Positions 5,965 to 57,564 of a stretch of DNA of 64,000 nucleotides are shown in pieces. Made by a program: the position numbers and the translations under genes. The DNA comes from Blastocatellia bacterium (lineage in GTDB: Bacteria > Acidobacteriota > Blastocatellia > UBA7656), in NCBI GenBank assembly GCA_963832205.1, contig CAWHTK010000020.1, positions 126,512 through 190,511 on the forward strand. Reading direction: 5' to 3'. Under the pieces are notes generated by a model that had not been told where the DNA came from, did no database searches, and saw only the letters and a list, made by a program, of their open reading frames with translations. Numbering within the stretch: the stretch's first letter is position 1; each line of letters begins with the position of its first letter.

Positions 5965-6027
5965 TAGATAGCTTTTAACAGAATACCTGATGCTCGTTCA
6001 ACCTGATTCTTCGATCTTTCGGCGGGC

Positions 6028-11078: not shown

Positions 11079-11195
11079 CTTTGAAAGGGTGAAGGATGAA
11101 GTATGGCGGATGAGCAGAAGTATATTAAACTCGAGATTCAAAATTTCAAATCTCAGCGCGGCTCATCCCTCATCCCTCATCCTTCATCCTTCAAA
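11079..11195. repeat. MITE-like palindromic element with heptamer arms (R1)
   Basis: Left arm tttgaaagggtgaaggatgaag; right arm ctcatccctcatccctcatccttcatccttcaaa (reverse complement of the left). Core attcaaaatttcaaatctcagc is shared with the other elements. Confidence 0.6.
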
Positions 11196-12215: not shown

Positions 12216-12272
12216 GGCGCTTGACTTCAATTATAGTCCCCCTTTAAAACGTCCCCATATATTAAGAGCGAT

Positions 12273-13418
12273 ATGTATATGCCAGCGCGGCACAAGGCTA
12301 TAGCGAATCTATTTATCTTTGCGCTCGTATTCTGCCTTGCCTCGCGCCCGGTGCTGAATGCCGCCGGGAGCGCCAGCGCGTCGCTCAACCCGCCGTCGCT
12401 TGCCGAAAACCTTTTCACGCAGGCCCGAGAGCTCAGCCGCTCGCTCCACGCCCGGCCCGTAGAAGAACGCGCCGTTGACGATTACCTCCGCGCGCTCGAC
12501 GCCTTCGGCCAGGTCATACGTCTAAATACCGATAAGAGATTTTCTGCCGAATCGCTCACGCGCCGAGCCGAGCTGTACCGCGAGATGGCCGACTCGAGCG
12601 GTGACAGCGCGCTCTACCACCGGGCGATTGAATCTTACCGCGCGGTGATGAGCGATCACGCCAACAGCTCGTTTGTGGGCGACGCCCTGACCAACATCGC
12701 GGAGATTTATGAAGAGAGCCTTCAAGACCTCGAAGGCGCGGCGCGGGCATATCGCGAGATGATCGAGCACTTTCCCAGCTCAGTGCTCGCGCGCGAGGCG
12801 CGTGCCGTGCTCGCGCGATTCGAGGACGAGCTGAGCCACCGGCCGCCGGACGTTCTGACGCCGGTTGAGGCTCCGGCGCGGGCCGTGGAGCTTGCCGGGA
12901 TCACACAGCTTACCAACGTGCGCAACTTCACAAGCCCCGATTATGCCCGCGTCGTGATCGACCTTTCGGGCGAGGCCGAGTACCGCGAGCGCCGCAACGG
13001 GTCGAACCGCCTCGTGCTGGAACTGTCGGGCATCGTAATCTCGCCGTCGCTTTACGGCCGCCGCTTCATCGTCAGAGAGACGGACCTGCTCAAGCGCATA
13101 GTGATCTCTAAGGACGACGCTTCCGAACAGGGCGCGCGCGTGGAGGTCGAAGTCGCTTCGCTCGCCAACTATTCGCTGATAAGACTGGAAGGGCCAGACC
13201 GCATCATCATCGACATACAGGCGGGGAGCGTCGCCCGGCCCATCGCGCGCGACTCTATAGTGAGGGAGCCGCGCGACGAGCATACGGATACGGGTGAGCG
13301 AGCCGCCGCGCCGGATATGGCAAGCGGCGAGGGCGCGAGCGCGCGTGCTGCTTCGCGAGCTTCCGGGCATAATCCGGTTAATCGTGAGTATGGGCGGCGC
13401 GATTATGTCGCTGCCTGA
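12273..13418 (+). CDS. exported TPR plus AMIN-domain protein (probable N-terminal part of the downstream amidase)
   Basis: Signal/anchor MYMPARHKAIANLFIFALVFCLAS, then TPR-like helices. The AMIN-like segment is ITQLTNVRNFTSPDYARVVIDLSGEAEY...LVLELSGIVI. The Arg/Ala-rich tail overlaps the next ORF by 125 nt. Confidence 0.55.
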   Translation: MYMPARHKAIANLFIFALVFCLASRPVLNAAGSASASLNPPSLAENLFTQARELSRSLHARPVEERAVDDYLRALDAFGQVIRLNTDKRFSAESLTRRAELYREMADSSGDSALYHRAIESYRAVMSDHANSSFVGDALTNIAEIYEESLQDLEGAARAYREMIEHFPSSVLAREARAVLARFEDELSHRPPDVLTPVEAPARAVELAGITQLTNVRNFTSPDYARVVIDLSGEAEYRERRNGSNRLVLELSGIVISPSLYGRRFIVRETDLLKRIVISKDDASEQGARVEVEVASLANYSLIRLEGPDRIIIDIQAGSVARPIARDSIVREPRDEHTDTGERAAAPDMASGEGASARAASRASGHNPVNREYGRRDYVAA

Positions 13419-14277
13419 CATCGGCGAGCCGATAGTCCCGATGACTCCCGACGAGGCGCGCAAGGCGGCGGGCGCTGCCGAAAGCCTCGCGACAAACCTT
13501 GCCGCGGGGGTTGACCAGAAAGCGGGCGAAGGACCCGTCAAGCGCATAGTGATCGATCCCGGTCACGGCGGGCACGACACGGGGACGGTAAGCTCGACGG
13601 GGCTGCGCGAGAAAGACCTTGTGCTCGACGTGGCGCGAAGGCTGCGCAATTACATAAAGTCGAAGTATCCAGAGATCGAAGTGATAATGACGAGGGAGAG
13701 CGACCGCTTCATCGCGCTCGAGGAGCGGACCGCCATAGCGAATTCGCGCAAGGCCGATCTGTTCATATCCGTGCATGCGAACGCGGCGCCGTCGCGCGCG
13801 GCGTCGGGTGTCGAGACGTTTTTCGTCAACCCCGACCGCGCGAAGCAGGAGGCCGCCCCGGCGGTAGCGCGTAACCCCGTGGCCGAGGAGAGCGCCAGGC
13901 CCGCGAGCGCCGCCGGCCCGGCCGGTAATGCCGGAAGCGCGAAAGCCGAGAGCGCCCCGGATAAGGCGCAGTCGGTCGTGGCAAGCGTAACCGTGGGCAA
14001 CCGCGTTGCCGAATCGCGCGAGCTTGCGCGCTACATACAATCGGGCCTCGTGCGCGGCATCGGGGCTCATTCGCCTCGCGCCGCCGCCAATCGCGGAGTC
14101 AAGCACGCGTCGTTTACGGTGCTCGTAGGCGCGATGATGCCGAGCGTGCTCGCGGAAGTCTCTTTCCTCTCCAACGAGCGCGACGAGGTATTGTTGAAGA
14201 CGGGCGAGTTCCGCGAGCGGATCGCGGCGTCGCTTTTCGCCGGGCTAAATGCCTACCTCAAGAAAAACCGCCAGTGA
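13378..14277 (+). CDS. N-acetylmuramoyl-L-alanine amidase (Amidase_3, AmiC-like catalytic domain)
   Basis: KRIVIDPGHGGHDTGTVSSTGLREKDLVLDVARRL...LFISVHANAA...GVETFFVN...RELARYIQ. The start codon is uncertain: 13294, 13378 or 13401. Confidence 0.8.
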   Translation, partial: LIVSMGGAIMSLPDIGEPIVPMTPDEARKAAGAAESLATNLAAGVDQKAGEGPVKRIVIDPGHGGHDTGTVSSTGLREKDLVLDVARRLRNYIKSKYPEIEVIMTRESDRFIALEERTAIANSRKADLFISVHANAAPSRAASGVETFFVNPDRAKQEAAPAVARNPVAEESARPASAAGPAGNAGSAKAESAPDKAQSVVASVTVGNRVAESRELARYIQSGLVRGIGAHSPRAAANRGVKHASFTVLVGAMMPSVLAEVSFLSNERDEVLLKTGEFRERIAASLFAGLNAYLKKNRQ

Positions 14278-14282
14278 CGATT

Positions 14283-14398
14283 CTAGATTTTGGATTTTAG
14301 ATTTTGGATTTTGGATTAGGGAACTTGGTCGGAATCAGCCCGCTGATGTTCCAGGTATCCGGCAATCCAAAATCCAAAATCTAAAATCCAAAATCTAA
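14283..14398. repeat. MITE-like element with ggattttg heptamer arms (R2)
   Basis: agattttggattttagattttggattttggatt ... aatccaaaatccaaaatctaaaatccaaaatct. The core is the reverse complement of the core of the copy at 38499..38612. Confidence 0.7.
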
Positions 14399-14404
14399 AT
14401 TGTT

Positions 14405-15536
14405 TCAGCTTTGCTTCAGGTCGTGGAGGGTCACGTAGCCGATGATGAGGCCGTTCGGGTCGAGCACGACCGCGCGGCCCAGGCCGTTGTTAGAGAGCAT
14501 ATGGCGCGCCTGGGAAACAGTCGAATTTGAGCTTAAGAACATGGAGTCGTCAACGGGGCGCATAACGTCGCGCGTGATGAGGTTCGGCCAGTCCGAGCGC
14601 GGCACCTGCTTTAAGTCTTCGAGCATGAGCATGCCGTGCAGCCTGCGGTCCTGTACGCATGGGAAATGTGGTGTGGTGGTTGTTCTTAAGGATTTTGTTG
14701 ACGAAATCGGAGACCTTCATTTCGGGCGGTATCTGCACGACGGCGCGGTTCATGACGTCTTCGATAGTGCCGCGCTTGACGCGCCATACGCCGTAGCCGC
14801 GACCTTCGGTCGTGCCAAGCATCACCGCGATCATCAGCCCGATAATAATGCTCCACATGCCGGTGATCCAGTCCTGAAAAAGGAAGCCGTAAAGGCCGGC
14901 GCCCATCAGCGTGAAGGCGATCATCATGCCCGCCCGGACCGCGAACTGCGTGGCCGCGCGGAAGTTTTTCTTAAAACGCCAGTGTATCGCCCTCAGCACG
15001 CGCCCGCCGTCGAGCGGCAGGCCCGGCAGTATGTTGAAGCCGGCCAGAAACCAGTTGACCAGCCCGACGTGCCTGAGCACCTGGCCGGCCGCCCTGTAAG
15101 TAGTGCCGTACAGCAGCACCTCGTCGATCAAAAAGAGCACCGTCCCGATCAGAAAACTTGATGCGGGGCCGACTACGGCGATCTTGAATTCGGAGGAAGG
15201 CTGCGCGGGCTGCCCGTTGAGCGAAGCGAGCCCGCCGAACATGTACAGGGTTATGCTGCCGGTGCCAAGCCCTTCGGCCCGCGCCATCAGGGCGTGCGAA
15301 AGCTCGTGCAAAAGCACCGACGCAAAGAGCAGCGCCGCCGTCAAAAAGCCGAGCAACCAGTAAGTTAACTGGCCGAGCCCCGGCGCCTCGCGCGGCAGCA
15401 GCGTCGAGGCCACCGCCCAGGCGTAGAAGGGGAAGACCGGGAGCCAGCTATAGTGCGCGCGTATGGGGATGCCGAAGACGCGGCCGAGGTAGAACGGCTT
15501 CGGGTTGAAGATCGTCATTACAGAGTTTCGTCGCAT
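14405..15536 (-). CDS. site-2 protease (M50 zinc metalloprotease) with C-terminal CBS pair; single frame disruption near 14640-14660
   Basis: HELSHALMARAEGLGTGSITLYMFGG (HExxH ... LDGG) in ORF 14550..15536. After ...NNHHTTFP the frame turns Arg-rich. The CBS frame (14405..14632 extended upstream) reads PCVQDRRLHGMLMLEDLKQV...ITRDVMRPVDDS...GLIIGYVTLHDL. Confidence 0.75.
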
Positions 15537-15563
15537 GTGATAGGCGCTCTTGTGAAGTTTACA

Positions 15564-15608
15564 TCTGAAATTTGAAATCTCAAATTTGAAATTCCAGACA
15601 CCCCTGAC
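15564..15608. repeat. MITE-like element fragment, tttgaaat family (R3)
   Basis: ctgaaatttgaaatctcaaatttgaaattccagacacccctgac. Shares the 16-mer atctcaaatttgaaat and cccctgac with the copy at 57496..57564. Confidence 0.55.
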
Positions 15609-15626
15609 TTGTCGCCCGCGATGGCC

Positions 15627-15632
15627 TATAAT
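15627..15632 (+). promoter_or_regulatory. candidate -10 box (TATAAT) upstream of sixA
   Basis: gcctataatag lies 27 nt upstream of the ATG. RBS aaaaaggag at 15644-15652. No convincing -35 box. Confidence 0.25.
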
Positions 15633-15658
15633 AGAAAACTCGAAAAAGGAGCATCCAT

Positions 15659-16168
15659 ATGGATCTTTACATTATCCGGCACGCTATCGCCCACCCGCTG
15701 GGTCAGAAGAACGAATTTACAGACGAGAAGCGTGCCCTGACCTCGGATGGCCGCGATAGGATGCGCGATGTGGCCAGGGGGCTCAAAAAGATGGGTGTCG
15801 AGCTGGACCTTTTGCTTACAAGCCCGCTCGTGCGCGCCGTCGAAACGGCCGAGATTGTGGCCGGTGCTCTGGGCCTTGGGAAAAAAGAGATGGCCGAGAC
15901 GCCGAACCTCGCGCCGGGCGCTTCGGCCGAAGACCTGTTTGCGGAGATAAAACGGCGTAACGGCGCGGAATCGATTGGGCTCGTGGGTCATCAGCCTGAC
16001 CTGGGGATGCTGATCTCGCGGATCATTCAATGCGGCGATAACTTCGGGGTGCAGCTCAAAAAGGGCAGCGTATGCATGATAAGCGTGCTTGAGACGGTGC
16101 CGACCCTGCGCGGCGACCTGATGTGGTTGCTGACGCCGAAGCAACTGCGCATGTTTTCAAAGCTCTGA
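15659..16168 (+). CDS. sixA: phosphohistidine phosphatase SixA (histidine phosphatase superfamily)
   Basis: MDLYIIRHAIAHP (RHG motif) ... LVGHQPDLGMLISRI (second catalytic His). 169 aa. Confidence 0.75.
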   Translation: MDLYIIRHAIAHPLGQKNEFTDEKRALTSDGRDRMRDVARGLKKMGVELDLLLTSPLVRAVETAEIVAGALGLGKKEMAETPNLAPGASAEDLFAEIKRRNGAESIGLVGHQPDLGMLISRIIQCGDNFGVQLKKGSVCMISVLETVPTLRGDLMWLLTPKQLRMFSKL

Positions 16169-21909: not shown

Positions 21910-22010
21910 AGCGAGCTTCGAAGGGGCGGCAGAGGGTGCAGGCGCGGCGAGGGGAGACGCGGCGGCGCACCACTACTCGGCTGTTATCTGTCGCCCCTTC
22001 GAAGCTCGCT
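21910..22010 (+). repeat. perfect 19-bp inverted repeat with a 63-nt loop directly after the repeat-protein stop (structured terminator/attenuator candidate)
   Basis: agcgagcttcgaaggggcg (21910-21928) and cgccccttcgaagctcgct (21992-22010) are exact reverse complements. The first arm starts 9 nt after the TAG stop. Confidence 0.45.
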
Positions 22011-33812: not shown

Positions 33813-33979
33813 TGCGACCTCACTCGACGGAAGGGGCGGAATAAAGCTGACAGGCAGGGGGTGGGCGAAAGAATGACGACTCTTCATTGACTTTGTGAAA
33901 CGCCGGTCTATAGAATGCAGCCGCCCATATCAGGTCTATAAAGCTCTGACAGAATTCATCCCGGATTGGAGGGAAGCCC

Positions 33980-36963
33980 ATGAGGAGACTCAAAAAACTA
34001 TCCGCTATTGCTCTAGCCGCGGTAATGATGCTTTCGACCGTTTCGCTTGCCCAGACGCAAATCACTACCGGCGTCATACAGGGCACGATTTCGGACGAAA
34101 CAGGGGCCGTCGTGGTCGACGCGGACATCGAAGTGAAGAACATCGATACGAACTTTACCAGGAGCCTGAAGAGCGATTCGGACGGGCGCTTTGTCTTTCT
34201 GCAATTGTCTTCGGGCCGATACCAGCTGACGGTCTCCAAACAGGGGTTCGCGACGCTGGTGCAGGAGAACCTTCAACTGACGGTCGGCCAGGCCATCTCT
34301 TTGAACCTTTCGATGAAGGTTTCGCAGGTGGCCGAGCGCATAACGATCTCCGCCGCGCCGACCATCGACACCGCCAAGACCGAATCAAGCTCTACGATAA
34401 ACGAGCTGTCTGTGAGCGAGACGCCGATACTTGGGAGGAAGTTCGAAGACCTGCTTTCGCTCACTCCGGGGGTGAGCATCGTGCAAGGCCCTGACGGCGA
34501 CGAGATAAACTTCGCGGGCCAGCGCGGCATCTTCAATAACATCAGCCTCGACGGCGGCGATTACAATAACGGATTCTTTGGCGAGCAGTCCGGCGGGCAG
34601 CGCTCTTCAATAGACATCACGCTCGATGCGGTAAAAGAGTTTCAGGTAGTCGCAACGGGCGCGAGCGCGGAGTTCGGGCGCACCGCGGGCGGCGTCGTTA
34701 ACGTCATCACAAAATCGGGCACAAACGAAATCCACGGCAGCCTCTTCCACTTTCAGAGGCTCGAGGCGCTGACCGCCAACACCAGCGACGGCAAGCCGCT
34801 CGAGGATTTTCATCGCGAGCAGTTCGGCGGCACCATCGGCGGCCCCATCAAGAGGGACAAGATGTTCTACTTCTTCGCCCTCGAACATATAAGAGAAAAC
34901 CTGACGCGGCCAAACCTGAGCGAGCCGATAGGGACGCCTTGCTCGCAGTCGAGCCCGAACATACGCAACCACGAATCGCTCATCGACGGCAGCGCCGACT
35001 GCCAGCGGCTGGCGCTGCTCGAGTTTCTTCAGGACGACTTTGAACCAGGAAGAGGGTCTGCCGATAGAGCACCCCATACGCAACACGGCGTTTCTTGCGA
35101 AGTATGACTGGAACGTTTCGGCGGCAAACAAGCTCAGCCTGTCATACAATTTCGTTCACTCGCGTAACGAGAACCAGACCTTTGACGTGGCCACCTACGG
35201 CAATTCCGCCAACGGCACCGAAGGGCCTGCGAAGATACAGGCGCTCAACGTAAATTTCTTTAGCACGATTTCACCGAGCATACTAAACGAAGCGCACTTC
35301 ACCTACGCTCGCGAAAACCGCCCGCGCGCCTCGGTCGAGTCGAACGTCGGGCCCGACACGGCCATGGGTTTTGTGACGACATTCCGTTTCGGCGACCCGT
35401 TCTTCCTTCAGCCGGGGGTCAACGAGCTGTTCTGGCGCACGCAGATTCGCGATAGCGTCTCGATACTTTCGGGCCGGCATACGATCAAGCTCGGCGGTGA
35501 GTGGATGCACAGCCGCAACGTGCAGATCTTCCGCGGATTCTTCAAGAGCCGTTATATATTCGACAGCGTGACAGGCTTTCTGCGTTACGCGTCGCCCGCT
35601 TCTTTCGGCGCGGGCTTCGGGCCTAACGCGGGCCGCTGCCCGAACGGCTCCTGGACAAACCTGAACTCGCCCAGTTGCGCGGGCGCGACGACTCCGCTTC
35701 TTCTCTTTTTGCAGAGCGCCGGCCGCACAGGTCCGGCGACCGACGCCGCGGGCTTTTCCGACATCGACAATGAAGACTACGGAGCCTTTATTCAGGATAA
35801 GTGGCAGGTGCGCCCGAATTTCACGTTCAACGCGGGTCTGAGGTGGGAGGCGCAGATATTCCCCGACCCCGTCGTGCCGCCCTCCGAGACCGCTTATGGA
35901 AAATTCCTCGGCGACCCGCGCTTCCCGTCCGACGGCACGCTGCCAAGTCAGAAGAAGATGTTTCAGCCCCGCCTCGGCTTCGCCTGGGACATCGGCAACA
36001 ACGGCAAGTCGGTGCTTCGCGGGAGCTGGGGAATATATAACGCGCGGCAGAACATGCTCACCCAGGTCGGGTCGATAACGACCAACGGCGTGCAGCAGCA
36101 GACCATCGCCGGCGGGCTGTTCGCCAACCCCACGGTGCGACCCACGTGGCCGAACCTCGCCCCGATCCCCGTTCTGCCCGAGGGTCAATTCCCCCTCTTT
36201 AGCGGCGTGCGCGTGTTCAGCCGCGATTACGCGAATCCGCGCATCTATACGACCAACGTCGCATTACGAGCAGGAGCTTGCTCCGAACTGGGCGATCTAT
36301 CTCGATTTCACTCATTCGAAAGGCGTGCATCTGACGAGATTCGTCAACGCGAATTTCTTCGGCGCGTTCTCGCCCGACCTGGGCGAAGTCATGACCGCTC
36401 AAAGCTCGGCCAAATCGCTTTATCGCGGATTCACCATCGGCGTTCGCAAGCGCTTTTCAAGCGGGTTCCAGATGGAAGGCAATTACGTATGGTCGAAAGA
36501 CCTGGATGATGATTCGAACGAGCGCGACCCGTTTACCGACCGCGTGTTCGATCACACGGACTTCTCGAAAGACTATTCGCTTTCCGACCGCGACATCCGC
36601 CACAAGTTCAACTTCTTCACCTACTCGGAGCTTCCCTGGGCATTTCAGTTGGGCACTCGCATTCAGGCCCGCTCGGCGCAACCTATTACGCCGAACCCGC
36701 GCGTGGTTAATGGAGTTGACCTCGGGCGCAACAGCCTCCGCAAAGATAACAAGTTCTTCTCGTTCGACTGGCGACTGTCGCGCAGGTTCCGCCTCGGCGA
36801 GCGAATGGCGATCTCGCCGGTCTTCGAGATGTTCAACACGTTTAACAACGATAACAACGTCAACCCGCTAATATCTCCGGGGCTGTTGAATTTCGACGGC
36901 TTCCTCAGGTTCGGCGTCGGAGACCCACGGCAGGTTCAGTTGGCGGTGAAGCTCACGTTCTAA
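33980..36963 (+). CDS. TonB-dependent receptor-like outer-membrane protein with N-terminal CarboxypepD_reg domain; read in three frames (disruptions near 35050 and 36260)
   Basis: Signal peptide MRRLKKLSAIALAAVMMLSTVSLAQ. CarboxypepD_reg segment GVIQGTISDETGAVVVDADIEVKNIDTNFTRSLKSDSDGRFVFLQLSSGRYQLTV. Plug-like region. ORFs 35040..36509 and 36325..36963 continue the beta-barrel and end in ..QVQLAVKLTF* (C-terminal aromatic residue). Confidence 0.75.
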
Positions 36964-36995: not shown

Positions 36996-38498
36996 TCAAC
37001 CCAGCCCGAACAGCTTCAATATATCGTCCCACCTGTTGCGCACGCCCATAAAAGTGAAGATCGCAAACATCACGATCATCACAAGGATGACGCACTTTCG
37101 CCATACAGGCATTCGAAGATTCTTCGGCAGAAAGCGGTGCTGTACGACCAGCGTGTGCGTTGCGAGGACGACAAAATTAAAACTCGCGATGAATGCGCCG
37201 ATCACTATCAGCGTGAACGGCTGCACCTGGTTGATCGCCCACATCCCGAACAGCGCGTATATGATGAGCAGCGAATAATAGACCCTGCGCACGTCCTCGC
37301 CCACGAGGCGGCGAATCCGGGGGCTCGCGCTCCATACGATATCGGTGGCCGTGCGCGCGAATGAATCGACTATGCCGAGCTGCGTCGAAAATAGTATCCA
37401 GAAGCCGTTGAGGAGCGTCAGAAACCAGGCGGTCGAGCCGAACACCTGCCTTATGCCTTCGGCTTGATAGGCGGCCGCCGCCCAGCCGCCCGATATGTCC
37501 GCGCCGGCCGGGACAAACTGCACCGTCATGAGCGCCGGCAGCGCCATACCCAGAAAGCAGCCGACCCCGAATACGAGCCACTGCTCGAAGCGGACGTATC
37601 TCATCCACTGCTCGAACCTGTTGAGGTTCTCCGGCGTCGCCGGGAAGACGTTGCCGACGCGCGACAGATTCACCTTATGCCCCCCGATCATCGCCGGGAT
37701 GTAGCCGGAGCGCGAAGCCATGCCCCATCCCTTGTCCCGAATCCAGTTCGTAATCGTCGCGTTGCCCAATCCCCCCAGCCCCGCATACGCGGCGAACGAG
37801 GCGAGCAGCATCCAGTCGCCGCCTTCGGGTATGGGCGAGCCGCCCAGCCCGAGAAAGCCTCCCCACACTTTTCCCCACGTAGAAAACGAAGTGAAGAATA
37901 TGCCGACAATGGCAAGGAAGATAATTATCCACGCGACCATGAACGCCTCGGCCCGCTCAAGCGCGGTCTCTACTTTTTTGCCGAAGGCGACGATGAGGAG
38001 CGCGGCGACGAATATGGCATAACCCCACATCATGACCGCCGGCCGGTCCTCGACCGTCGTGATCGAGCCTTTGAAGGCCGACGCTATGGCGGTCGCGCCC
38101 GTAATCGCCCAGCCCGGCCAGCCCGTTTGCAAAAACAGCAGAACGCAATAAGTGATGCCCCAGAAGGCGGGACCGGGGCGCGTCCGCATGACTCCCGTCA
38201 GTATCGGCTCGCCCGTGGCGATCGTGTAGCGAATCATCTCCTGGTTGAGGATTGTCTGCGTCAGTATCGACACGCTCGCGATCCACAGCAACGCCGCGCC
38301 GTACTTGGCAGTGACCGCCGGGCCGAGCAGCCACTCGCCGCTGCCGATGCTCATCCCCAGCGCAATGGTGCCGGCGCCTATGAGCTTGAAAGCGTTTTTT
38401 ATGCCGAACGGCGGTGGCGAGGGAATATCGGCCTGCCCCCATGCGGGCAATCGCCCCGGATCGGGCGCGGCGTCCGGCACTTTCGCTGTGGTAGTCAT
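36996..38498 (-). CDS. Nramp-like polytopic membrane transporter (divalent-metal transporter family, distant)
   Basis: 500 aa with about 11-12 transmembrane helices. N-terminal IGAGTIALGMSIGSGEWLLGPAVTAKYGAALLWIASVSILTQTILNQEMIRYTIATGE resembles the Nramp/MntH signature region. Confidence 0.55.
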   Translation of the reverse strand: MTTTAKVPDAAPDPGRLPAWGQADIPSPPPFGIKNAFKLIGAGTIALGMSIGSGEWLLGPAVTAKYGAALLWIASVSILTQTILNQEMIRYTIATGEPILTGVMRTRPGPAFWGITYCVLLFLQTGWPGWAITGATAIASAFKGSITTVEDRPAVMMWGYAIFVAALLIVAFGKKVETALERAEAFMVAWIIIFLAIVGIFFTSFSTWGKVWGGFLGLGGSPIPEGGDWMLLASFAAYAGLGGLGNATITNWIRDKGWGMASRSGYIPAMIGGHKVNLSRVGNVFPATPENLNRFEQWMRYVRFEQWLVFGVGCFLGMALPALMTVQFVPAGADISGGWAAAAYQAEGIRQVFGSTAWFLTLLNGFWILFSTQLGIVDSFARTATDIVWSASPRIRRLVGEDVRRVYYSLLIIYALFGMWAINQVQPFTLIVIGAFIASFNFVVLATHTLVVQHRFLPKNLRMPVWRKCVILVMIVMFAIFTFMGVRNRWDDILKLFGLG

Positions 38499-38612
38499 TT
38501 GGATTTTGGATTTCGGATTTTAGATTTTGGATTGCCGGACACCTGGAAAGTCAGCGGGCTGAATTCAGCCCTGTTCCCGGAATCCAAAATCCAAAATCTA
38601 AAATCCAAAATG
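38499..38612. repeat. MITE-like element with ggattttg heptamer arms (R5), filling the whole intergenic gap
   Basis: ttggattttggatttcggattttagattttggatt gccggacacctggaaagtcagcgggctgaattcagccctgttcccgg aatccaaaatccaaaatctaaaatccaaaat. Lies between the Nramp start codon (38498) and the DUF1330 stop (38615). Confidence 0.7.
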
Positions 38613-38927: not shown

Positions 38928-41635
38928 TTAGCTCACGCCAAGCATTCGACCGATGGCCTCGAAAGCGGCTTCCAGAGCCTGATCCAGCTTTTCGGGCTCG
39001 TTGCCGCCGCCCGTAGCCATATCGGCGCGGCCGCCGCCCTTGCCTCCCATGACGGCCGATACCTCGCGCACGATCTGGCCCGCGTTCAATCGCTTCGTCA
39101 GATCATCCGTCACGCGGGCGACAAGCGAAGCCTTGCCGTTGGTGGCCTGCCCCAGGACGACGACCCCCGACTTGAGTTTTTGGGAGAGATTGTCGGCAAG
39201 TTGGCGCATCGCGTTCGCGTCGAGGTCCGACACGCGGCGCGAGAGCACCTTTACTCCGCCGACCTCGCGCGCGCTCGTCGCCGCCTCGCCCGCTTCGGTC
39301 TGGGCCATCTTCAGTTTTAGCTGGTCAAGCTCGCGCTCGTAGCGGCGCACCTGGTCTATAAGCTTTTCGACCTGCGCGGGAATATCCTCCATGCGCGTCT
39401 TGAGCCGGTCGCCGAGCTGGCGGATTATCTGCTCGTCGTTTTGAAGTCGCGCGATGGCGGCGTCGGCCGTTATCGCTTCGAGCCGCCTCACGCCCGCCGC
39501 GATGGATGAATCGCTGATGATCTTTAACGGCCCGATGTCGCCGGTCGCGTGTACGTGAGTGCCGCCGCACAGCTCCGTGGAAAAGCCCGGCACGCTCACC
39601 ACCCGCACGTCCGAGGCGTACTTTTCCCCGAACAGCGCCATCGCGCCAGACGAGAGCGCTTCTTCAAGCGGTTTGATCTCGGTCTCGAGCTGCGCGGTTC
39701 TGTAGTACCTGCGTATTGACGAGCCGCTCGATCTCCGCGATCTCTTCATCCGTGAGCGGCGCATAGTGTGTGAAGTCAAATCTCAAGCGGTCGGGCGCGA
39801 CAAGCGAGCCCGCCTGCTTGACGTGCGGCCCGAGCACTTCGCGAAGCGCCGCGTGCAAAAGGTGCGTGCCCGTGTGGTTGGCCTTGATGCGGCGGCGGCG
39901 CTCGGCGTCAACGCGGGCCGTGAGCGCATCACCCACGCGCAATCGTGCCGCGCTCGACTTTCGTCTTATGCAGGTAAAAGCCGTTGACTACCGAATAAGT
40001 ATCTTCGACCGCGGCGATGCCGTTATCGCCTTCGAGCACGCCGGTGTCGCCGATCTGGCCGCCCGCCTCCGAATAAAACGGCGTGCGGTCCAGGATGATC
40101 TCGCCCGTCTCGCCCGCGCTGAGGCTTTCGCGCTCGTCGTCGCCCACGATGATGGCGAGCACGCGCGCGCCCGAAGTCTCCGTTTCGACGTAGCCGCGTG
40201 AATTCGGTCTTGCGGCAGTTTCTCGGAAACCTTCGTGTAGATTTCGCGGCCACGGCGCGACGCGGCTTCGGCGGCCATCGACGCGCCGCTCTGCTGCTGA
40301 AGCTCGCGGAGCGCCGCGTCGAATTGCTCGTTGAACTCCTCCTCCATGAGGTCGAACCCGTTCTGCCGGAGCATGACGAGTATCATGTCGCGCGGCACGC
40401 CGTACGTGTCGTATGTTCTGGCAAGCTCGAGCATCGGCGGCGGCGCGGGACTGTAACGCTCGAAGACTTCGGCAAGCCGCGGCTCGCCCACGGTGAGTAT
40501 GCGGCCGAAGCGCTATCTCCTCGCCTCGCACAGTCTCTTCTATGGCCGGGCGCGAGTGAATAAGCTCCGGGTAAGGCTCGGCCATGAAATCGACGACGAA
40601 GTCGGTGATCCGGTGAAAGAACGGCGGCTTCAACCCGAGACCTTTTACGCCGTGATAGATCGCGCGGCGCATGATTTTGCGCAGCACGTAGTTGCGCCCC
40701 ACGTTGCCGGGCGCGATGCCGTCCGCGATCGAAAAGGCCGTCGTCCGCGCGTGGTCGGCAAGCACGCGCATGGCGAATCCTTCCGGCGAGTCGTAGACGT
40801 ATTCGTGGCCGCTCAGCTCTGCGATGAAATCGATGATCGGCTTTAGCAGGTCGGTGTCGTAATTCGATGCGACGCCCTGTATGACCGCCGTCACGCGCTC
40901 GAGCCCCGCGCCGGTGTCAACGGATGGGGCGGGGAGCGGGTCGAGCCTGTATTCGTTTTCGCCCGTCTTTATCCGGTTGAACTGCATGAAGACGAGGTTC
41001 CATATTTCGAGCGTCGTGTCGCCCGGCCCGTTGACGTACTCGCGGCGGTTAAACTCCGGGTCTTCGGGGTTCGGCCCCTGATAGTAATGAATCTCGGAGC
41101 AAGGGCCGCACGGGCCGGTCTCGCCCATCTGCCAGAAGTTGTCCTTGCGGCCGAATCGCATTATGCGGTCGGGCGGCGCGCCCACCTGCTCCCAGTAACG
41201 CGCCGCGTCTTCGTCGGCCGAGACCTCCGAGTCGCCTTCATAGACCGTGAACCACAACCTCTTCGGGTCGAGCTTGAATTCGTTTACGAGCAAGTCCCAG
41301 GCAAAGTATATGGCCTCTTTCTTGAAGTAATCGCCGAACGAGAAATTGCCGAGCATCTCGAAGAACGTATGATGGCGGCTCGTGCGGCCGACTTCGTCCA
41401 GGTCGTTGTGCTTGCCGCCCGCGCGCACGCATTTTTGCGACGAAGCGGCGCGGGTGTAATCGCGCTCCTCAAGGCCGAGGAATACGTCCTTGAACTGATT
41501 CATCCCGGCGTTAGTGAAAAGCAGCGTCGGGTCGTTAGCGGGCAGAAGCGGCGAGCTGCGCACGACGCGATGGCCGCGCGCGGCAAAGTAATCGAGGAAT
41601 CTCTTTCTAATTTCGTTTCCGGTCATAACAGTCAT
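38928..41635 (-). CDS. alaS: alanine-tRNA ligase with at least four apparent frame disruptions
   Basis: N-terminal catalytic core ([40 protein letters not shown]) in ORF 39929..41635. Middle segments lie in other frames (39988..40491 ..[18 protein letters not shown]..; 39664..39942 ..[37 protein letters not shown]..). C-terminal editing/DHHA1 region is in 38928..39779 (..CGGTHV.. [15 protein letters not shown]). Confidence 0.85.
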
Positions 41636-41791
41636 CTTTATTAGTCAAGTTCGAGAATGGGATTATAGCAAACCGGCATTTGATGGGACAGCAGACCCCG
41701 CGCGCGCTAACACCGTAAGCCCATCGGCTATGTCAGGCGGCGCTTGAAATATCGTCTGACCAGACCGACTATGACAAGGAAAGGTGAGCCT

Positions 41792-44875: not shown

Positions 44876-45985
44876 TCACTGCTGGTTCTGACCGGGGTAT
44901 CTAAATTTGATCTCATTGCCGTTGCTCAGCAAGCGGGTGATCTTGTACGAAGCCGGGAATTTCGCGTCGCGCTCGAATTCGAACCTGTAAGTCCCGACCT
45001 CGCCGGAAGCGAGCGCGGCGGGCGGGACATCAACCGTGATCGTTTCGGCGGGCGCGTTTGCCTCGCGCTGTAGCGATAGCTCGACGGTCAGGTTATCAAG
45101 CGCATTGCCCGATATGTTTTCAACCGAGCCGCTCGCCACGTCTCTGTTCGTCCCTTTTATCTGTTCGTTTTTGTTAGGGAGGACTTTGGCCTTCGGCTCG
45201 AGCGCCGCCCGGCGTTCTTCTTCGGCCTGCCTGCCGCTATAGAAAGCCATCTGCTTGTTGACCCACCCTCTGAAAGAAGGGATGCCGTAGTATGCGCCAA
45301 TCGCGCCCGCGACAAGCAGCACGATCAGCAGCAGCGCGATTGTGCCCCCGCGCCCCGCTTTTTCATCCGAGGCTTTGCCGTAACGGCTGAGCCCGCTGAT
45401 GCCCGCATCTTCCGCCGGCCGAACCGGCTCTCCGAGCACGAGCGGGCCGCCGCCCGGCGCCTCCGAGGCGATCCCGAGGACTGAGCCCGCGGTCTTCTTA
45501 TGCGCGATATTCGCCTGTCGCGAAGGCTGCGCCGCAATGTCCATTGCCTGCGCCACGCTCGGCGTCGGCCGGTCCACTTTCGCCGGCGGCGCGTCGAATC
45601 GTTCGCTGCCGAGCGCCCTCGTCTGCGACCGCCGCTCTACGAAATCGGACTGCTCGCGCGGCGTGAGCGGCTCAATGCGCGGCGGCTCGAAACTCTCGCG
45701 CCGCCCCATGGGCTCGATCCGCGGCGGGACGAACCTTTCGCGGCCCGCGGAGCCGGCCACTCGCGCCTCGCGCTCCTCCTCATCACCGCGAGGGCGGCTC
45801 GGCTCGGAAGGCTCGGCGGTTTGCTCCGCGAGAGGCGGTACGATTTCGCCCGGTTCGGAGGCGAGCAGCCGCGTCTGTTTTGCTTCCTTCCGCTCCTCGG
45901 GTTTCGAGATTCTTCCAGACCCCTTCATCAAAGACGGTCGCTTCATCCTTGACCGGCGCCTGGACCAGTGGACGCGTTTCATCAT
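44876..45985 (-). CDS. hypothetical Pro/Glu-rich membrane protein (probably continuous with 46174..46464 through further frame errors)
   Basis: Low-complexity PE-rich N-terminal half, one transmembrane helix (IALLLIVLLVAGAIGAYYGI), and a C-terminal region of about 130 aa with no homology. Confidence 0.4.
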   Translation of the reverse strand: MMKRVHWSRRRSRMKRPSLMKGSGRISKPEERKEAKQTRLLASEPGEIVPPLAEQTAEPSEPSRPRGDEEEREARVAGSAGRERFVPPRIEPMGRRESFEPPRIEPLTPREQSDFVERRSQTRALGSERFDAPPAKVDRPTPSVAQAMDIAAQPSRQANIAHKKTAGSVLGIASEAPGGGPLVLGEPVRPAEDAGISGLSRYGKASDEKAGRGGTIALLLIVLLVAGAIGAYYGIPSFRGWVNKQMAFYSGRQAEEERRAALEPKAKVLPNKNEQIKGTNRDVASGSVENISGNALDNLTVELSLQREANAPAETITVDVPPAALASGEVGTYRFEFERDAKFPASYKITRLLSNGNEIKFRYPGQNQQ

Positions 45986-46173
45986 ACGAAATCGGCTCTC
46001 GGGCCTGGGGCACGGGCTCGCTTTCGACAGGTTTGCTTTGCGCGATCTCGGGCTCGGCGGCGCGATTAAGCGGCAGCGTCTCCCTTACCGGCTCCCTTTG
46101 CGGCGCGGGCGGCTCGACAATCTCCGGCTCCGGCTCGAACTTCTGAGCGAACTCGCGCGGAGGCTCCGCCTCT

Positions 46174-46464
46174 TCAACAAATGGTTCGGCTGAAAGCTCG
46201 CTCGTCTCGCGCTCGCGCCATCTCCGGCGCGGCCTCGATCTCAGGCTCCGCGGGAGGGCTCGCTTGAGCGCGCGGCGTCGCGTTCACGAATATGCTATGC
46301 ATCGAGAGGTTCCAGTTCTCTTCGGCCTCTTTCTCCGTCTTCTTGACCCGCCGCGAAAAATAGACCACCAGCCCCACGGCCAGCATCAACACCAGCACTA
46401 CGCCGATGATTACAAAGATCGAAAGCTTTTGCTGAAGTAGAATGAGAAGTAGAGCTGAATACAT
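46174..46464 (-). CDS. small membrane-anchored fragment (likely the N-terminus of the protein above)
   Basis: MYSALLLILLQQKLSIFVIIGVVLVLMLAVGLVVYF transmembrane helix followed by EPEIEAAPE low-complexity sequence. Confidence 0.3.
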   Translation of the reverse strand: MYSALLLILLQQKLSIFVIIGVVLVLMLAVGLVVYFSRRVKKTEKEAEENWNLSMHSIFVNATPRAQASPPAEPEIEAAPEMARARDERAFSRTIC

Positions 46465-46468
46465 TGTC

Positions 46469-47947
46469 TTAATGCCCTGCCTTTAATTTATTCGGCGCTG
46501 CCCAGACCGCCCGGATCGCGTCGAGTATTATCGCCTCTTCATGTTCGGCCACGGTGCGCAAATCCACAAGCACTCGGTCGCGTTCGGTGCGCGTAATTAT
46601 GGCCGTCGTATGCCCGCGGAGTCGCTGCTCTAATGACTCGGCCGACATGCCTTCGCACTCAAGCGCGACCAGCACTGTCGGGAGCTTCACGTCGGGCGCC
46701 GATCCTCCGCCTATGACCGAGTCTCCCTCTTCAAGCGACGCGCGCAATCGAGCGGGCGCAACCTTGTTGATCGACTCCGAGAAGCGGGCCGCGCGCTCGC
46801 GTATCTCGCCGGTCGTCTCGGCTATGGCCCGCATGACCGGCAGGCCCAGCAGATCGCGCTCGTAGAGTCTGAGCGTTGCTTCGAGCGCGGCATAAGTGAG
46901 CTTATCTACGCGCAACGCGCGCATCAACGGATTGCGCCTGACTTGAGAGATGATTTCACGCGTGCCCGCGATGATGCCCGCCTGCGGGCCGCCCAACATC
47001 TTGTCGCCGCTGAAGGAGACGACCGATATGCCCGCGCGCAGGGAATCACTCACGACCGGCTCATCCGTCACGCCGTAGCGGGCGAGGTCTGTTAAACAGC
47101 CTGAGCCGAGGTCCTCGAAAGACGGGATGTTTCGGCTGCGCGCAAGCTCGGCGATCTCGCCGGCCGTCGGGCGCTCTGTAAATCCGATGATGCGATAATT
47201 CGACGGGTGGACCCTGAGTATCAAGCGAGTGCGCTCGTTTATCGCCCGCTCGTAATCTTCTATGCGCGTGCGGTTGGTCGTCCCGACCTCGCGCAGCCGC
47301 GCGCCGCTCTTCTCGCAAACTTCCGGTATGCGGAAGCTGCCGCCTATCTCGACCAGCTCGCCGCGCGACACGATGACTTCGCCGCCTTCTGCCAGGGTGT
47401 TGAGCACCAGCAGCACGGCCGCCGCGTTGTTATTGGCGACCACCGCGTCTTCGCTCGCCGCGAGCCGCGCGATCAGCTCCTGGCAGTGCGACTCGCGCCG
47501 GCCGCGCCCGCCCCGCTCGACGTCGTATTCGAGGTTCGAGTACCCGGCGGCCGTCTCGTTGATCGCGTCTATGGCCGCGCGGGCAAGCGGCGCGCGGCCG
47601 AGGTTCGTGTGTATGATGACGCCGGTCGCGTTGATGACGCGCCGGAGCGAGGGCCTGATCGCCTTTGCGGCCTCCTGTTCGAGCCGCCGCTCGATCTCTG
47701 AAATCAGGTCGTCAGAAGTCAGAAGGCAGGAGTCGAGATTTGAAATGAGGCGCTCAGCGCCGATTTCAGATTCCCTCCGACTGCCGACTGCTGACTCCTG
47801 ACTCTAATAATTCTTCGCGCAAGCGGTCGGTGATCGAGCGCAGGAGGTCTCGCACCCTTTCGCGGCTCAAGTCTTCAGATAGTCGCTCGGCCAGGGGCCT
47901 TGCGAGCAGCCGCTCGATTGAGGGCAGCGATCTAAGAAGGTCTTCCA
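46469..47947 (-). CDS. selA: L-seryl-tRNA(Sec) selenium transferase, interrupted by a 97-bp repeat element between the N-terminal and core domains
   Basis: N-terminal frame MEDLLRSLPSIERLLARPLAERL...ITDRLREELLES stops at a TGA inside the element. The core frame opens after a TAG, also inside the element, and reads DLISEIERRLEQEAAKAIRPSLRRVINATGVIIHTNLGRAPL...VVANNNAAAVLLVLNTLAEGGEVIVSRGELVEIGG...FSGDKMLGGPQAGII (PLP-Lys region) through 46469. Confidence 0.7.
47709..47805. repeat. MITE-like palindromic element (tttgaaat family, R7) inserted in the selA coding region
   Basis: gtcagaagtcagaaggcaggagtcgagatttgaaat gaggcgctcagcgcc gatttcagattccctccgactgccgactgctgactcctgac. Imperfect terminal inverted repeats of about 36 nt with a palindromic centre ggcgctcagcgcc. 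Length 97 nt (not a multiple of 3). Confidence 0.65.
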
Positions 47948-48102
47948 TGATTTCAGTTGACACCGAATGGCGCCTGCCGTACATTCTAACACACCCCCAA
48001 GTCATAGATGTAAGCCCCGCCAGGTGAGTTGCGTAATGGATCCTAAAACATTAAACCCACATAGACCAGGACCTCGACCGGCTTGAGCAAGACATCAGGC
48101 GG

Positions 48103-48709: not shown

Positions 48710-48916
48710 TTATACTTTTTTCACCGTTTCGGCTTGCGGTCCCTTCGGGCCCTGGATTATCTCGAACTCAACCACCTCCCCCTGCTTGAGGGATTTGTAT
48801 CCATCCGTCTGAATGGCCGAGTAATGCACGAAAACATCCGCGCCACCCGGCTGTTCGATAAAGCCATAGCCCTTGGCATTGCTGAACCACTTGACCTTGC
48901 CTTGCGATGTAGTCAT
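48710..48916 (-). CDS. cold-shock protein (CspA family)
   Basis: [36 protein letters not shown]...[10 protein letters not shown] carries the RNP1/RNP2 motifs. ggaggagga RBS. Long 5' UTR of about 215 nt. Confidence 0.85.
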
Positions 48917-49132
48917 TCGATGGTCCTCCTCCACATCCGTTACGATTGTTGATCCGCGCGCCTGAGCGTCAGGTTTCCGCCGTCTGTACGCGCCGGGCAA
49001 AGCGCCTGATTCTTTGCACGACACGCAAAACCTAAATAGAAAGCCGCAAAGCGAAGCTCGCCACCTTTGAGCTTCCCTTTGCGGCTTCTTATATGGCTTT
49101 CACTGCGTGATGCTCAAGCTCTGTAACCGCTT

Positions 49133-50188
49133 TCAGCTAGATTTGATAAGCATTCTACGCGGAGCGGCCCGCATACTAGCGCAACGCATTGGCAGTGTCA
49201 AGCAAAAGCTGTTACGTAAACAACCGATAAAGCGGTCGGGGCGATAATGATTCGCCCCTGCGCTGCGGGAACGAGCTGTTTGTATGCCGTCACCGGCGGT
49301 AAAAGTGAATAGCTCCGATGCGTCGTCGCGGAAACGGAGCGTGCGCGCGGCCGATGCTTCGCCTGAGGCGAAGACTTCATCTCCCAGGTGGCGAGAGAAG
49401 TCGTACAGAGCCGCATCGGCCGCGCTCAGGCCCCCTCCGTTGTTATCGGCGTTGATCGCGCGAACAGTGCCCGACGCCGAGCTGATGGCTACGACGCGGA
49501 ACTCAACGAGGGGGACAAACCGTGATGTGGATTGATTTGTTAGCGACAGGTCGAGCTGGAATACGCCGCCCGCAAGCGACACGTTCGAACGGTCGCCTGA
49601 CAAGATTAGTCATCTCCTGCTTGACCCGCTGATCTGCGATCAGACTGACCGTGTTGCTCGGCGCGGTGACGAAGAATCCTATGCGCCCTGGCGTTAAGTA
49701 TATCGACGACCCGTGCCCGTAACAGACTTTCAGTTCATCAAGCGGGCCTGCGGCGCTACGCCGTGGACGCGCAAGTCGTCGGCCGTGTTCGGCAATCCGT
49801 CCGCGCCGGGCGAGAACCCTAAATAGCCGGCCGCGTCGGAAGCGCCCGCCGAGCCATGCCCGAAGTCATCAATGCCGGTGTCGCCCTCTACGAGCGGCAT
49901 CTGGTAGATGACCTTCTTATTCGTATTGAGCGCGGCCACGGACGGCAGCAATCCAAGCCGCGGAGGAGTCGGGTCGCCGCCGAACATCTCGTGCGACCAT
50001 TCTATCCCGGTGTCGAGGATGGCGATCTTCATGCCCTGCCCTTCGAACCCGTCGCGGTGAACTTCGTCGAACGCCGTCAGCTCGCGGCTGGCTCCGTAGA
50101 CCTGCGAAGCTAGCCGATGCGGGAGGAAGACGCGTTTGAAGAGTGGCGCGGCGCTCAACCAGCCGCGCCACCCGAACGAATGAATCAT
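49133..50188 (-). pseudogene. remnant of an S8 peptidase paralogous to 52794..56026, with a large internal deletion
   Basis: ORF 49730..50188 matches the catalytic N-terminus of the 1057-aa subtilase up to DFGHGS (KIAILDTGIEWSHEMFGGDPTPP..LNTNKKVIY..), then loses frame. ORF 49133..49603 matches only its extreme C-terminal domain (..SSASGTVRAINADNNGGGLSAADAALYDFS...LRFRDDASELFTFTA..). About 700 aa between them are missing. Confidence 0.6.
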
Positions 50189-52654
50189 TCGCCGAAAAGA
50201 ATGTTGATGAGCTTCGTCATCGGGTTGATGAAATCGGCGCGCGTGACGGGCCTTACGGGCTCGAAGCGCGGGCCGGGCACGGCCTGGAACTGGCCCGGAG
50301 CGATCTCTCGTATTTCGGCCGGAAAAGCCTGAAGGACGCCCCGGTCAATCGCCAGCTGAACGTAGCCGCGAAGGTTTAACGGTATCAGGTTGTTGTCAAT
50401 CAGCGGGGTGCCGCCCGCGGTCACGGTTCTGCCCGCCATCGCGCGCGCCTGCGCGTCGAGCCTGAGCGCTCGCACCATCGCGACCGCAAGCTCAAGCCTG
50501 TTGACAACATTGCTTGCCCCAAACGTCCTGCCCTCCTGGCCAAGTATGCCTTCGCGCTTGAGCGATTCGGCGACAAGCGCGAAAGGGTGGCTCGGCATGA
50601 TGTCGTCGAAGCTGGGCTGCGCGGGCAGGTACTGCATTACGCGCGCGCCGAACATGAGCGCGTAAGCAAGGTCATAGCGATTAATCTCGTCCGACGGGTG
50701 GAACTGATCGCTTGTCGTAATGATCACGCGATCATAAACAAGCCTCAACGCTTTGGCGCGCGTCGCTTCATCAAAGCCCGATAAATCCGAGATCGCGTCC
50801 GGCGAGTACGTGTAGTGCGTGACCTTCAACCGGTATGGCTGATCGGCCGGTTGCCCCACCCCGGCAAGCCCGGAGCTTACGCGCGCGGTGTATGAGCCCG
50901 CCCTGGGGAACTCGATCTTCACCGCCTCGCGTGCGCCGAACAGCGCCGCGAGGTTGATCGCGTCGGAGCGCGCCACCTGCGAGCCGCCGCTCAGTATCGT
51001 CAGCGCGAGGTCGTTCATCACCACGTTCGTGTTGTCTATCACGACTTCGTCTTCGCCCGCCGCGCCGTCCCAATCGAGCTGCACGAAAGTAAATCGGGTG
51101 TTGGGCGGAACGCTGAACGTATGATCGCTTGAGGCGCGCGCCGCGACCGTGCCGCCGAACTCCCCGCCGTCCTGCCCGTCAACCGCGAGCCCTTTGCCGG
51201 TATACTCGAACACGCCGTATCGCTTCTGCGGGTTGAGCGCGAGGTCTACGGCCGCGTGAGCATTGGCCAGCCCCGCGCCGACTTCAAATAGATCGTAGGC
51301 GCCGAGCGGCGTCGCCGTCCGCTCCAGGATGCTCTTGATCTCTTCGACCGAGAGGTTCGGGTTTGCTTCGAGCATCAAAGCGATGATGCCCGACAGGTGC
51401 GGGCACGCCATCGAGGTGCCGCTTATCTGGGTGTAGAAAGGAAGAAACGCGACCGGGATTTCAACGTCCGCGTCCGCGCCGTTCGACGCCGTGTTGGTGG
51501 TCGAGCGAGTGGCTATTATGGCCGAAGTGAACCCCTGATCGGTCGGGCCGCCCGTGCCCGGCGTCAACACCGTCGGGTGTATGACCGCGTCGCCAAATAT
51601 GCCGCGCGACGAAAAGCTCGCGAGCCGCCCGTCTTTTGTCGAGGCGCCGGCCGTTATCACCCACGGCACGGACGCCCACCGGTTCTGAGAATTGGGCCTC
51701 GGCCCGTCATTGCCGTTTGCGAAGACGACCGCTATGTTCCCCTGTTCGACGAGCTGGCGGCTGGCGACGTTGACGGGATGCTCCGGGTCAATCGCGACGG
51801 CGGAATTGCCCCACGAGCAACTGATGACGCGCACGTTGTACTCGAACTGATGCGTAAGAGCATAATCGAAGGCCGCTATCTGCCCGAGCACGAATAGCAC
51901 CGCGCCCGACCCGAGCCCCAGCAGTTTTGCGCCCGGCGCGACTCCTTGATAAAGGCCGCCGCTCGACTGGCCCGTGCCGGCGGCTATGCCGGCGCAGTGC
52001 GTGCCGTGCCCCACGCTCGTATCCGAGTTGATTGCGTTCTCGACGTATGTCGGCGGCAGTATTCCCTCGACGACATTCCCCAGCGTGTCCGTGCGGACCA
52101 TGAGCCCGTCGTCGCCGCTCGGATTTACTATGACGTTTTGTATGGTCTTGGCATTCGGGTCGAGCGGGTTGAACCTCAAGTCCGGGTGCGTGCCGTCGAT
52201 GCCCGTGTCGTTGATGGCGATTGTCACCCCGCGCCCCGAAACCGGAAGCCCGCGGTTGCGCGCGGTAATCGCCGCGTCCGAGCGCAGACGCGATATACCT
52301 ATGAGCGGCTTCGACTGGTGCATATTCAACCGGAGCCGCGAATTCAGGTATATGGACCTCAGCTCCCCCCAGCCCATCATCTGTTGAATCTGCGCGCGGG
52401 TCGCATTGACGGCCATGATCGGAAAATTATTCATCCGCACGCCGAGGCTTATCCCGAGCGCGCGCACGCGATTGACTTCCACGTCGGTGACGCGCGAGCC
52501 ATGAAATGTCAGTATGACGCCAAACTTTGTCGTCTGTGCGACTTGCGGAAGTTGCAGGGCCAAGCTCGGGGTCTAGTCTCGGGGCCGCCTCCGTCTGGGC
52601 AACCGGCAGAGCGAGAGAGAATGCGATCAGAAGGAGAAAACGCGCGTACTTCAT
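50185..52654 (-). CDS. secreted S8 serine peptidase of about 820 aa with a C-terminal extension (signal peptide in a different frame)
   Basis: AINDTGIDGTHPDL, VGHGTHCAGIAAGTGQS, GTSMACPHLSGIIALM. The signal peptide MKYARFLLLIAFSLALPVAQTEA is in ORF 52427..52654. The frame switches near 52570-52590 (LALPVAQT versus LALQLPQVAQTT). Confidence 0.8.
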
Positions 52655-57495: not shown

Positions 57496-57564
57496 ACAGG
57501 GGTCAGGGCCGGAAGATTTGAAATTTGAGATCTCAAATTTGAAATACTACGGCCCCTGACCCCT
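57496..57564. repeat. hairpin-forming MITE-like element, tttgaaat family (R8)
   Basis: Stem aggggtcagggcc / ggcccctgacccct enclosing gaagatttgaaatttgagatctcaaatttgaaatactac. Shares a 16-mer with R3. Confidence 0.6.

Follow-up and report, generated by a model that had tools for sequence, protein, structure and literature searches.

This study addressed why the selenocysteine-synthesis gene selA appears in two reading frames, with a palindromic element at their junction, in a 64-kb stretch of DNA (the window; 64,000 nucleotides of contig CAWHTK010000020.1, assembly GCA_963832205.1) from a Blastocatellia bacterium. The gene lies on the minus strand and runs from an ATG at 47948 to a stop codon at 46469, a length of 1480 nt that leaves one base over when divided by three. 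The initial annotation of the window correctly described the two frames, the palindrome at their junction, and the intact core of SelA. It favored the recent insertion of a miniature inverted-repeat transposable element (MITE), with either the loss of selenoprotein synthesis or ribosomal bypassing or frameshifting as the outcome. Our analysis points to another answer. The frame break in selA is probably a single-base insertion error of the assembly, situated in an old hairpin of 7-nt repeats, and the true selA is most likely unbroken, encoding 492 aa and carrying an insert of 96 nt. The split selA as found should not be taken as a sign of selenoprotein loss or of recoding.

The switch between the two frames of selA must lie in or beside the 5′ arm of the palindrome (Table 1). 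The N-terminal open reading frame (ORF), MEDLLRSLPSIERLL...REELLESGVSSRQSEGI*, reads into this arm before it ends at a TGA. The core, in the +1 frame, was intact from DLISEIERRLEQEAAK through the FSGDK region with the pyridoxal phosphate (PLP)-binding lysine to the stop codon at 46469. Its frame opens past a TAG (47806-47804), as annotated, but this codon lies at the edge of the palindrome and not well inside it. Because the core frame contains no ATG, GTG, or TTG from 47803 to 47443, the core could not be started on its own. The core matched the A. aeolicus SelA structure 3W1H (E = 5.3e-112, query residues 84-471), and its homologues carry Pfam PF03841 and PF12390. A protein search placed the gene in Blastocatellia (Acidobacteriota). 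The homology to SelA covers both the PLP-dependent core and the C-terminal domain; a single continuous ORF is absent from the deposited sequence and is obtained by removing one base. Within the 64-kb window, we found no tRNA, no SelB G1 motif, and no SelD GCGCK motif, and genes for selenocysteine-pathway partners were likewise not found in the selA neighborhoods of relatives. The loss of selenoprotein synthesis that had been proposed cannot be inferred from a split selA.

The net frame defect of selA is one extra base (+1), and its removal restores a protein of the same length as that of the closest relative (protein P0001, locus L006). In comparison with L006, dN/dS was 0.15 over 412 codons in the core half, which carries no other lesion, and 0.33 over 49 codons in the N-terminal half, and the first 37 residues of the two proteins were identical. 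These sequence comparisons indicate that both halves of selA are under purifying selection. The low value in the core and the lack of a second lesion weigh against a real frameshift. In that case, selA would have been inactivated recently, through the insertion of 1 nt or through an additional 7-nt unit in the 5′ arm, and would now be a very young pseudogene or a slippage-prone contingency tract caught in its OFF state.

We then compared selA with the other genes of the window. At least 11 +1 breaks were identified besides that of selA (12 with selA), and all were of one type. Five of them were located in alaS, which encodes alanyl-tRNA synthetase, as judged against two intact orthologues, namely the AlaRS of locus L005 (897 aa in one ORF) and that of L006. 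Three of the breaks came down to one surplus base each (an A at 40514, a C at 40212, and an A at 40199), and the other two lie near 39935 and 39695; each break was flanked by sequence 70-90% identical to the orthologue. Five frameshifts in the essential alaS are not biological, and the broken genes of the window cannot all be pseudogenes, which further argues against a real frameshift in selA. Given so many +1 breaks, a technical +1 in selA would be expected anyway; the density around selA is approximately 1-2 breaks per kb, so about one break would be expected in a gene of 1.48 kb. The annotation had set the selA lesion apart from the many 1-nt frame errors as a discrete insertion, a contrast that disappears because the net defect of selA is also exactly one base. 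The errors in the assembly were insertions only and lay outside homopolymers, and the genes pilT, recX, and pilZ were free of breaks. Users of this assembly should be aware that it carries, in places, approximately one spurious inserted base per kilobase. The possibility that the insertions were methylation-linked errors at GCGC sites was considered and dropped, because the alignment with L006 placed the A, C, and A beside these motifs and not within them.

In the mRNA sense, the element in selA begins with (GAGTCAG)2 (CAGTCGG)2 AGGGAAT CTGAAAT C-GGCGCTGAGCGCC- and continues with TCATTTC AAATCTC GACTCCT GCCTTCT GACTTCT GAC. The palindrome has two outer arms of 25 nt with 80% complementarity (47711-47735 and 47778-47802), and its inner arms are TTTGAAAT and ATTTCAGA. 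The DNA or RNA of the element could form a long hairpin: a 111-nt RNA of the element folded at -47.4 kcal/mol versus -30.7 +/- 3.8 kcal/mol for dinucleotide shuffles (z = -4.4), and folding with longer flanks gave z = -2.3. Rfam returned no family for any part of the window. A SECIS-like (selenocysteine insertion sequence) or SelB-binding role of the hairpin was ruled out, because the tips share no common motif among relatives. The inner 3′ part of the element (47733-47757, RLISNLD) was 72% identical to the adjoining downstream native codons (47691-47715, DLISEIE); the hairpin tip may stem from local duplication or snap-back copying, or the likeness may be due to chance.

We read the DNA of eight related selA loci. 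Seven loci from independent assemblies had heptamer-derived sequence at the identical site, in frame, and only L008, the shortest, had none; selA was read in a single frame in all of the relatives examined as well as in 119 homologous proteins. The site was occupied in the closest relatives, L001, L006, and L002, and the number of units differed at every locus. Most of the loci carry long hairpins at the site (Table 1), and that of L009 forms a perfect 33-bp stem. The four AAATCTC units that L002 carries in place of a GTCAGR-type hairpin indicate that the content of the site is replaceable and not only resizable. The SelA proteins of these relatives are only 66-82% identical to that of the window, and their inserts match that of the window in site and kind and not in exact sequence; between the window and L001, the element was 55% identical and the flanks were 91% and 81% identical. 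A derived TCCTGCC unit is common to the window and L009, and the opposite arm of L009 compensates for it with GGCAGGA. Since inserts occur at the same site in SelA relatives at this level of identity and L009 shares the TCCTGCC unit, the element must predate these lineages. The insert in selA is thus old, fixed in position, and fast-evolving, and it has been retained as a hairpin and as an open frame alike.

These findings leave little room for the recent insertion of a mobile MITE that split selA, which we regard as highly improbable. Such an origin would account for the imperfect terminal inverted repeats, formed by the outer arms plus the inner arms, for a length that is not a multiple of three as it stands, and for a position between two domains. 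The closest relatives, however, carry heptamer-derived in-frame sequence at the identical site, which is empty of repeat only in the distant L008, and the comparison with an empty site proposed in the annotation therefore met occupied sites; no direct repeat that could represent a target-site duplication was visible at the ends of the element. The annotation had also noted that the same extra residues, in frame in relatives, would mark a genuine linker. The relatives do carry extra in-frame residues of the same kind at the same site, although the sequences are not identical. Moreover, the element is a single copy: no second copy of its 37-nt core was found in the 64-kb window at ≤3 mismatches, a BLAST search of the element against the window (word size 7) returned only chance-level matches of 12-37 nt, and its tip had no match in genome or metagenome collections. 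Its assignment to the tttgaaat repeat family of the window could accordingly not be sustained, as the two have an architecture in common and not a sequence.

Constraint on the reading frame was visible both in the arms of the hairpin and in the length of the insert. The 3′ arm of the window element is open in the core frame only. In the unit whose TGA would be in frame, it carries TGC (Cys), as does L009, and the 3′ arm of L003 carries CGA at the in-frame TGA positions. We measured the linker from RDLLR to SLRRVINATG in the 113 homologues with clear anchors. Its length ranged from 39 to 90 aa with a mode of 42 aa and exceeded 45 aa in 66 of the 113 proteins, and the longer linkers resembled translated heptamers, such as EVRSQKPEVRSQK...DSRLPTPDSRLPTSDSRLLTPDS. 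Among the linkers longer than 45 aa, 39 of 66 had a length of 0 or 6 modulo 7 (p = 2e-7, uncorrected for phylogeny). Such clustering in steps of 7 aa would follow if the only surviving changes were those of three units (21 nt).

On the basis of these findings, we infer the following course of events. The element would have resided at the junction of the SelA N-terminal domain and the core linker since before the compared Blastocatellia diverged, and relatives would transcribe it and translate it in frame as a peptide of variable length that is predicted to be disordered. It would turn over through the gain and loss of 7-nt units, of which only frame-preserving products (a net change of 21 nt, or 7 aa) would survive, and in-frame TGA codons would be replaced by CGA or TGC. 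The apparent split in the window would then reflect one spurious base within 47768-47805, one of many in the assembly. The locus would thus offer a natural case for studying how a palindrome is maintained under coding constraint, with slippage in 21-nt steps, avoidance of stop codons, and compensation in the opposite arm, and an example of a 7-nt-repeat hairpin, sometimes perfect, that a bacterial class has retained within the gene of a conserved enzyme.

A structural model was consistent with a site that tolerates such changes. In the AlphaFold2 (AF2) model of P0001, the insert (residues 52-73) was predicted as coil with a predicted local distance difference test (pLDDT) score of <50, between helices at residues 29-50 and 78-96, and the alignment to A. 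aeolicus SelA (3W1H) starts just past the insert, at chain residue 56. The insert site in SelA is plausibly permissive, as the model suggests. This position is reported to be where the N-terminal domain, which binds tRNA, joins the N-linker (Itoh et al. 2013). The variation at this site bears on how much change in length is tolerated in the tether between the SelA N-terminal domain and the catalytic core.

Expression of selA by recoding was also considered. A ribosome could shift by +1 or bypass in the 5′ arm, aided by the stable hairpin of approximately -47 kcal/mol directly downstream of the shift zone, and the zero frame does end in a TGA. Downstream hairpins, however, are known to stimulate -1 and not +1 ribosomal shifts. 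Inspection of 47805-47768 revealed no codon pair that would allow re-pairing in the P site, as AUC-UGA, GAG-GGA, UCG-GAG, and UUA-GAG all fail, and no matched take-off and landing codons for bypassing were present. Neither was the 38-nt zone comparable with a programmed +1 site of the prfB type, since it contains no slippery codon and the relatives have no frameshift. All relatives read through in a single frame, and recoding would also be needed at 11 unrelated +1 sites, which share no motif. We therefore consider it exceedingly improbable that the break is tolerated through frameshifting or bypassing.

A real frameshift would fit the repeat structure. Each heptamer gained or lost shifts the frame by +1 or -1, two units of the 5′ arm are perfectly duplicated in tandem, as (GAGTCAG)2 and (CAGTCGG)2, the tract varies in length among species, the split stands in the deposited record, and the deletion of one unit would yield an ORF of 490 aa. 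Nevertheless, both arms contain four units, so that no 7-nt difference between them points to a recent gain, and the other 119 best homologues were all unbroken at this site. We consider a real frameshift unlikely. One form of it would make the hairpin a functional contingency tract, the slippage of which toggles selenocysteine synthesis in Blastocatellia populations, with the window allele in the OFF state; in that case, selection or templated repair between the arms would maintain the hairpin, which would be more than just tolerated. Similar to slipped-strand contingency loci, selA carries an intragenic repeat with a unit that is not a multiple of three, so that one unit switches the frame. 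Known contingency loci, however, have units of 1-5 nt, are located in surface or restriction-modification genes, and frequently occur as OFF alleles, whereas selA encodes a housekeeping tRNA-modifying enzyme, is in frame in 119 of 120 homologues, and varies in steps of 7 aa. A contingency function of this kind appears quite improbable.

We still prefer a spurious base in the assembly. In its favor, contig ends accounted for every fragment in the set of the 120 best SelA homologues except the gene call of the window itself, P0010 (324 aa; NCBI/ENA, 266-kb contig). Several findings weigh against it. P0010 corresponds exactly to the truncated ORF, and the deposited record therefore contains the break. 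A search with the flank pattern returned only L006, a different species, in genomes and nothing in metagenomes, and no assembly of the same strain was found. If errors were uniformly distributed, only approximately 6.5% of those in selA would fall in the 97-nt element, and a 7-nt tract is where real slippage frameshifts are expected, as +7 nt is equal to +1. When the two arms were compared with one another and with the arms of L009, the asymmetries were of 3 nt only, and the extra base was not localized. A further point against this reading is that the error profile consists of insertions only and avoids homopolymers.

Table 1. Positions of the features described in the window, and the selA site in related loci.
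Feature	Position	Strand	Description
selA N-terminal frame	47766..47948	-	60 codons plus TGA (47768-47766); Se-cys_synth_N-like domain
selA core frame	46469..47803	-	N-linker, PLP core, and C-terminal domain; no internal stop
Heptamer-repeat palindrome in selA	47709..47805	-	approximately 97 bp, imperfect, between the two frames
5′ arm on the mRNA	47778..47802	-	four 7-nt units of the AGTCRGN type
GC-rich hairpin tip GGCGCTCAGCGCC	47749..47761		selA element
3′ arm on the mRNA	47711..47735	-	TCGAC TCCTGCC TTCTGAC TTCTGAC; core frame reads LDSCLLTSD
Interval of the extra base	47768..47805	-	38 nt; holds all 37 positions whose single deletion restores the 492-aa SelA
alaS (alanyl-tRNA synthetase)	38928-41644	-	three frames, five +1 breaks
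Low-complexity gene directly downstream of selA	44879-46482	-	two +1 breaks
TonB-dependent receptor	33950-36963	+	at least two +1 breaks; one Pfam barrel domain over three frames
amiC (AMIN and Amidase_3)	12237-14277	+	one +1 break
M50 protease with CBS domain	14405-15671	-	one +1 break
Intergenic palindrome	11085..11193		(GAAGGAT)n/(ATCCYTC)n arms
Intergenic palindrome	14279..14399		(GATTTTG/A)n units; arms of 34 nt with 100% complementarity; flanked by amiC and the M50/CBS gene, which converge on it
Intergenic palindrome	38498..38611		(GATTTTG/A)n arms
Intergenic palindrome	57498..57564		(ATTTGAA/G) units; the tttgaaat repeats of the initial annotation
Shorter palindrome or tandem stretch	15560..15595		(ATTTGAA)n; related to 57498-57564
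selA site of L001, L003, L004, L005, L006, and L009			in-frame AGTCAGR/YGACTYC hairpins; -55 to -94 kcal/mol, z -3.3 to -7.7
selA site of L002 (close relative, SelA 82% identical)	82-119		non-palindromic (AAATCTC)4 without an inverted partner
selA site of L007 (common 477-aa form)			four GTGGTCA units
selA site of L008 (463 aa, shortest; distant)			no repeat

The element in selA belongs to a type of repeat that recurs elsewhere in the window as well as in contigs of relatives. Period 7 was the sole enriched short period: six segments were identified in the window and none with periods of 4-6 or 8-12, and in the related loci, 1-9 period-7 segments were present in six of the seven scanned, again with none of the other periods. 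The six segments of the window make up four hairpins, namely the selA element and the palindromes at 14279-14399, 38498-38611, and 11085-11193. The selA element and the other repeats of the window have their architecture of tandem 7-nt arms in common and have no common consensus. Related Blastocatellia contigs also contain intergenic period-7 palindromes with other units, for example at L003 181-438, L004 21111-21241, and L005 13321-13435. In approximately 190 kb of loci scanned, selA was the only intragenic carrier, and every other period-7 palindrome was intergenic. We found no specific description of heptamer palindromes or small dispersed repeats of Acidobacteria in the literature.

The closest counterparts among known systems are heptameric simple sequence repeats (SSRs), such as the short tandemly repeated repetitive (STRR) heptanucleotides of cyanobacteria, the GGGAATC repeats of Xanthomonas, and the GGGGAYT repeats of Nostoc (PMC4692102). 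Like these, the elements described here consist of tandem 7-nt units that are over-represented compared with other sizes and are mostly intergenic near gene ends, some are inverted pairs that could form stem-loops, and length and sequence vary among close relatives (PMC4692102). The hallmarks of STRR-type repeats, enrichment of 7-nt units and variation of the unit number among related genomes, were both present. In contrast to heptameric SSRs, the units here are not G4-forming and are locus-specific (GTCAGAA, GATTTTG, GAAGGAT, ATTTGAA, GTGATGA, and GGGTTCA), almost all of them pair into a single long hairpin, and the host is an acidobacterial class.

The Rickettsia palindromic elements (RPEs; PMC10969869) are similar in that they are intragenic palindromes of approximately 100-150 bp that add an in-frame peptide at a permissive place. 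RPEs have a conserved sequence and peptide and occur in many copies in unrelated genes, whereas the selA element is hypervariable and has no conserved peptide. In-frame translation of the element was found in the relatives and is interrupted in the window as deposited, and a conserved element present in multiple genes was not found. Unlike RPEs, the selA element appears to grow by unit slippage rather than by transposition. It is similar to heptameric SSRs and RPEs yet distinct from both in its locus-specific units, single paired hairpin, and lack of a conserved peptide. Repetitive extragenic palindromes (REPs) and bacterial interspersed mosaic elements (BIMEs) are likewise small palindromes that are abundant between genes and adjoin gene ends. 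REPs are sequences of 20-40 bp that are conserved per genome, carry GTAG or CGTC tags, and are linked to RAYT transposases (PMC3733652). The elements described here differ from them in being approximately 70-120 bp or longer, built of heptamers, and without a common consensus.

Some further features of the repeats and frames were observed. The intergenic heptamer hairpins of the window mostly abut gene ends, and their unit differs by locus. The array at L003 181-438, upstream of a peptidase M16 gene, is built of the unit type of the selA hairpin and is very asymmetric, with approximately seven GTCAGAA-type units followed by approximately 25 units of TTCTGAC or CTCTGAC. Possible +2-type breaks, or else separate genes, were noted at 4103-5997 (HYR/FG-GAP) and 49730-52572 (subtilases). 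Two strong inverted repeats that are not built of heptamers were found at 21910-22010 and 49028-49100; one has 24-nt arms that are 96% complementary and 53 nt apart, and the other has 32-nt arms that are 9 nt apart and adjoins a gene with a cold-shock domain (48710-49024).

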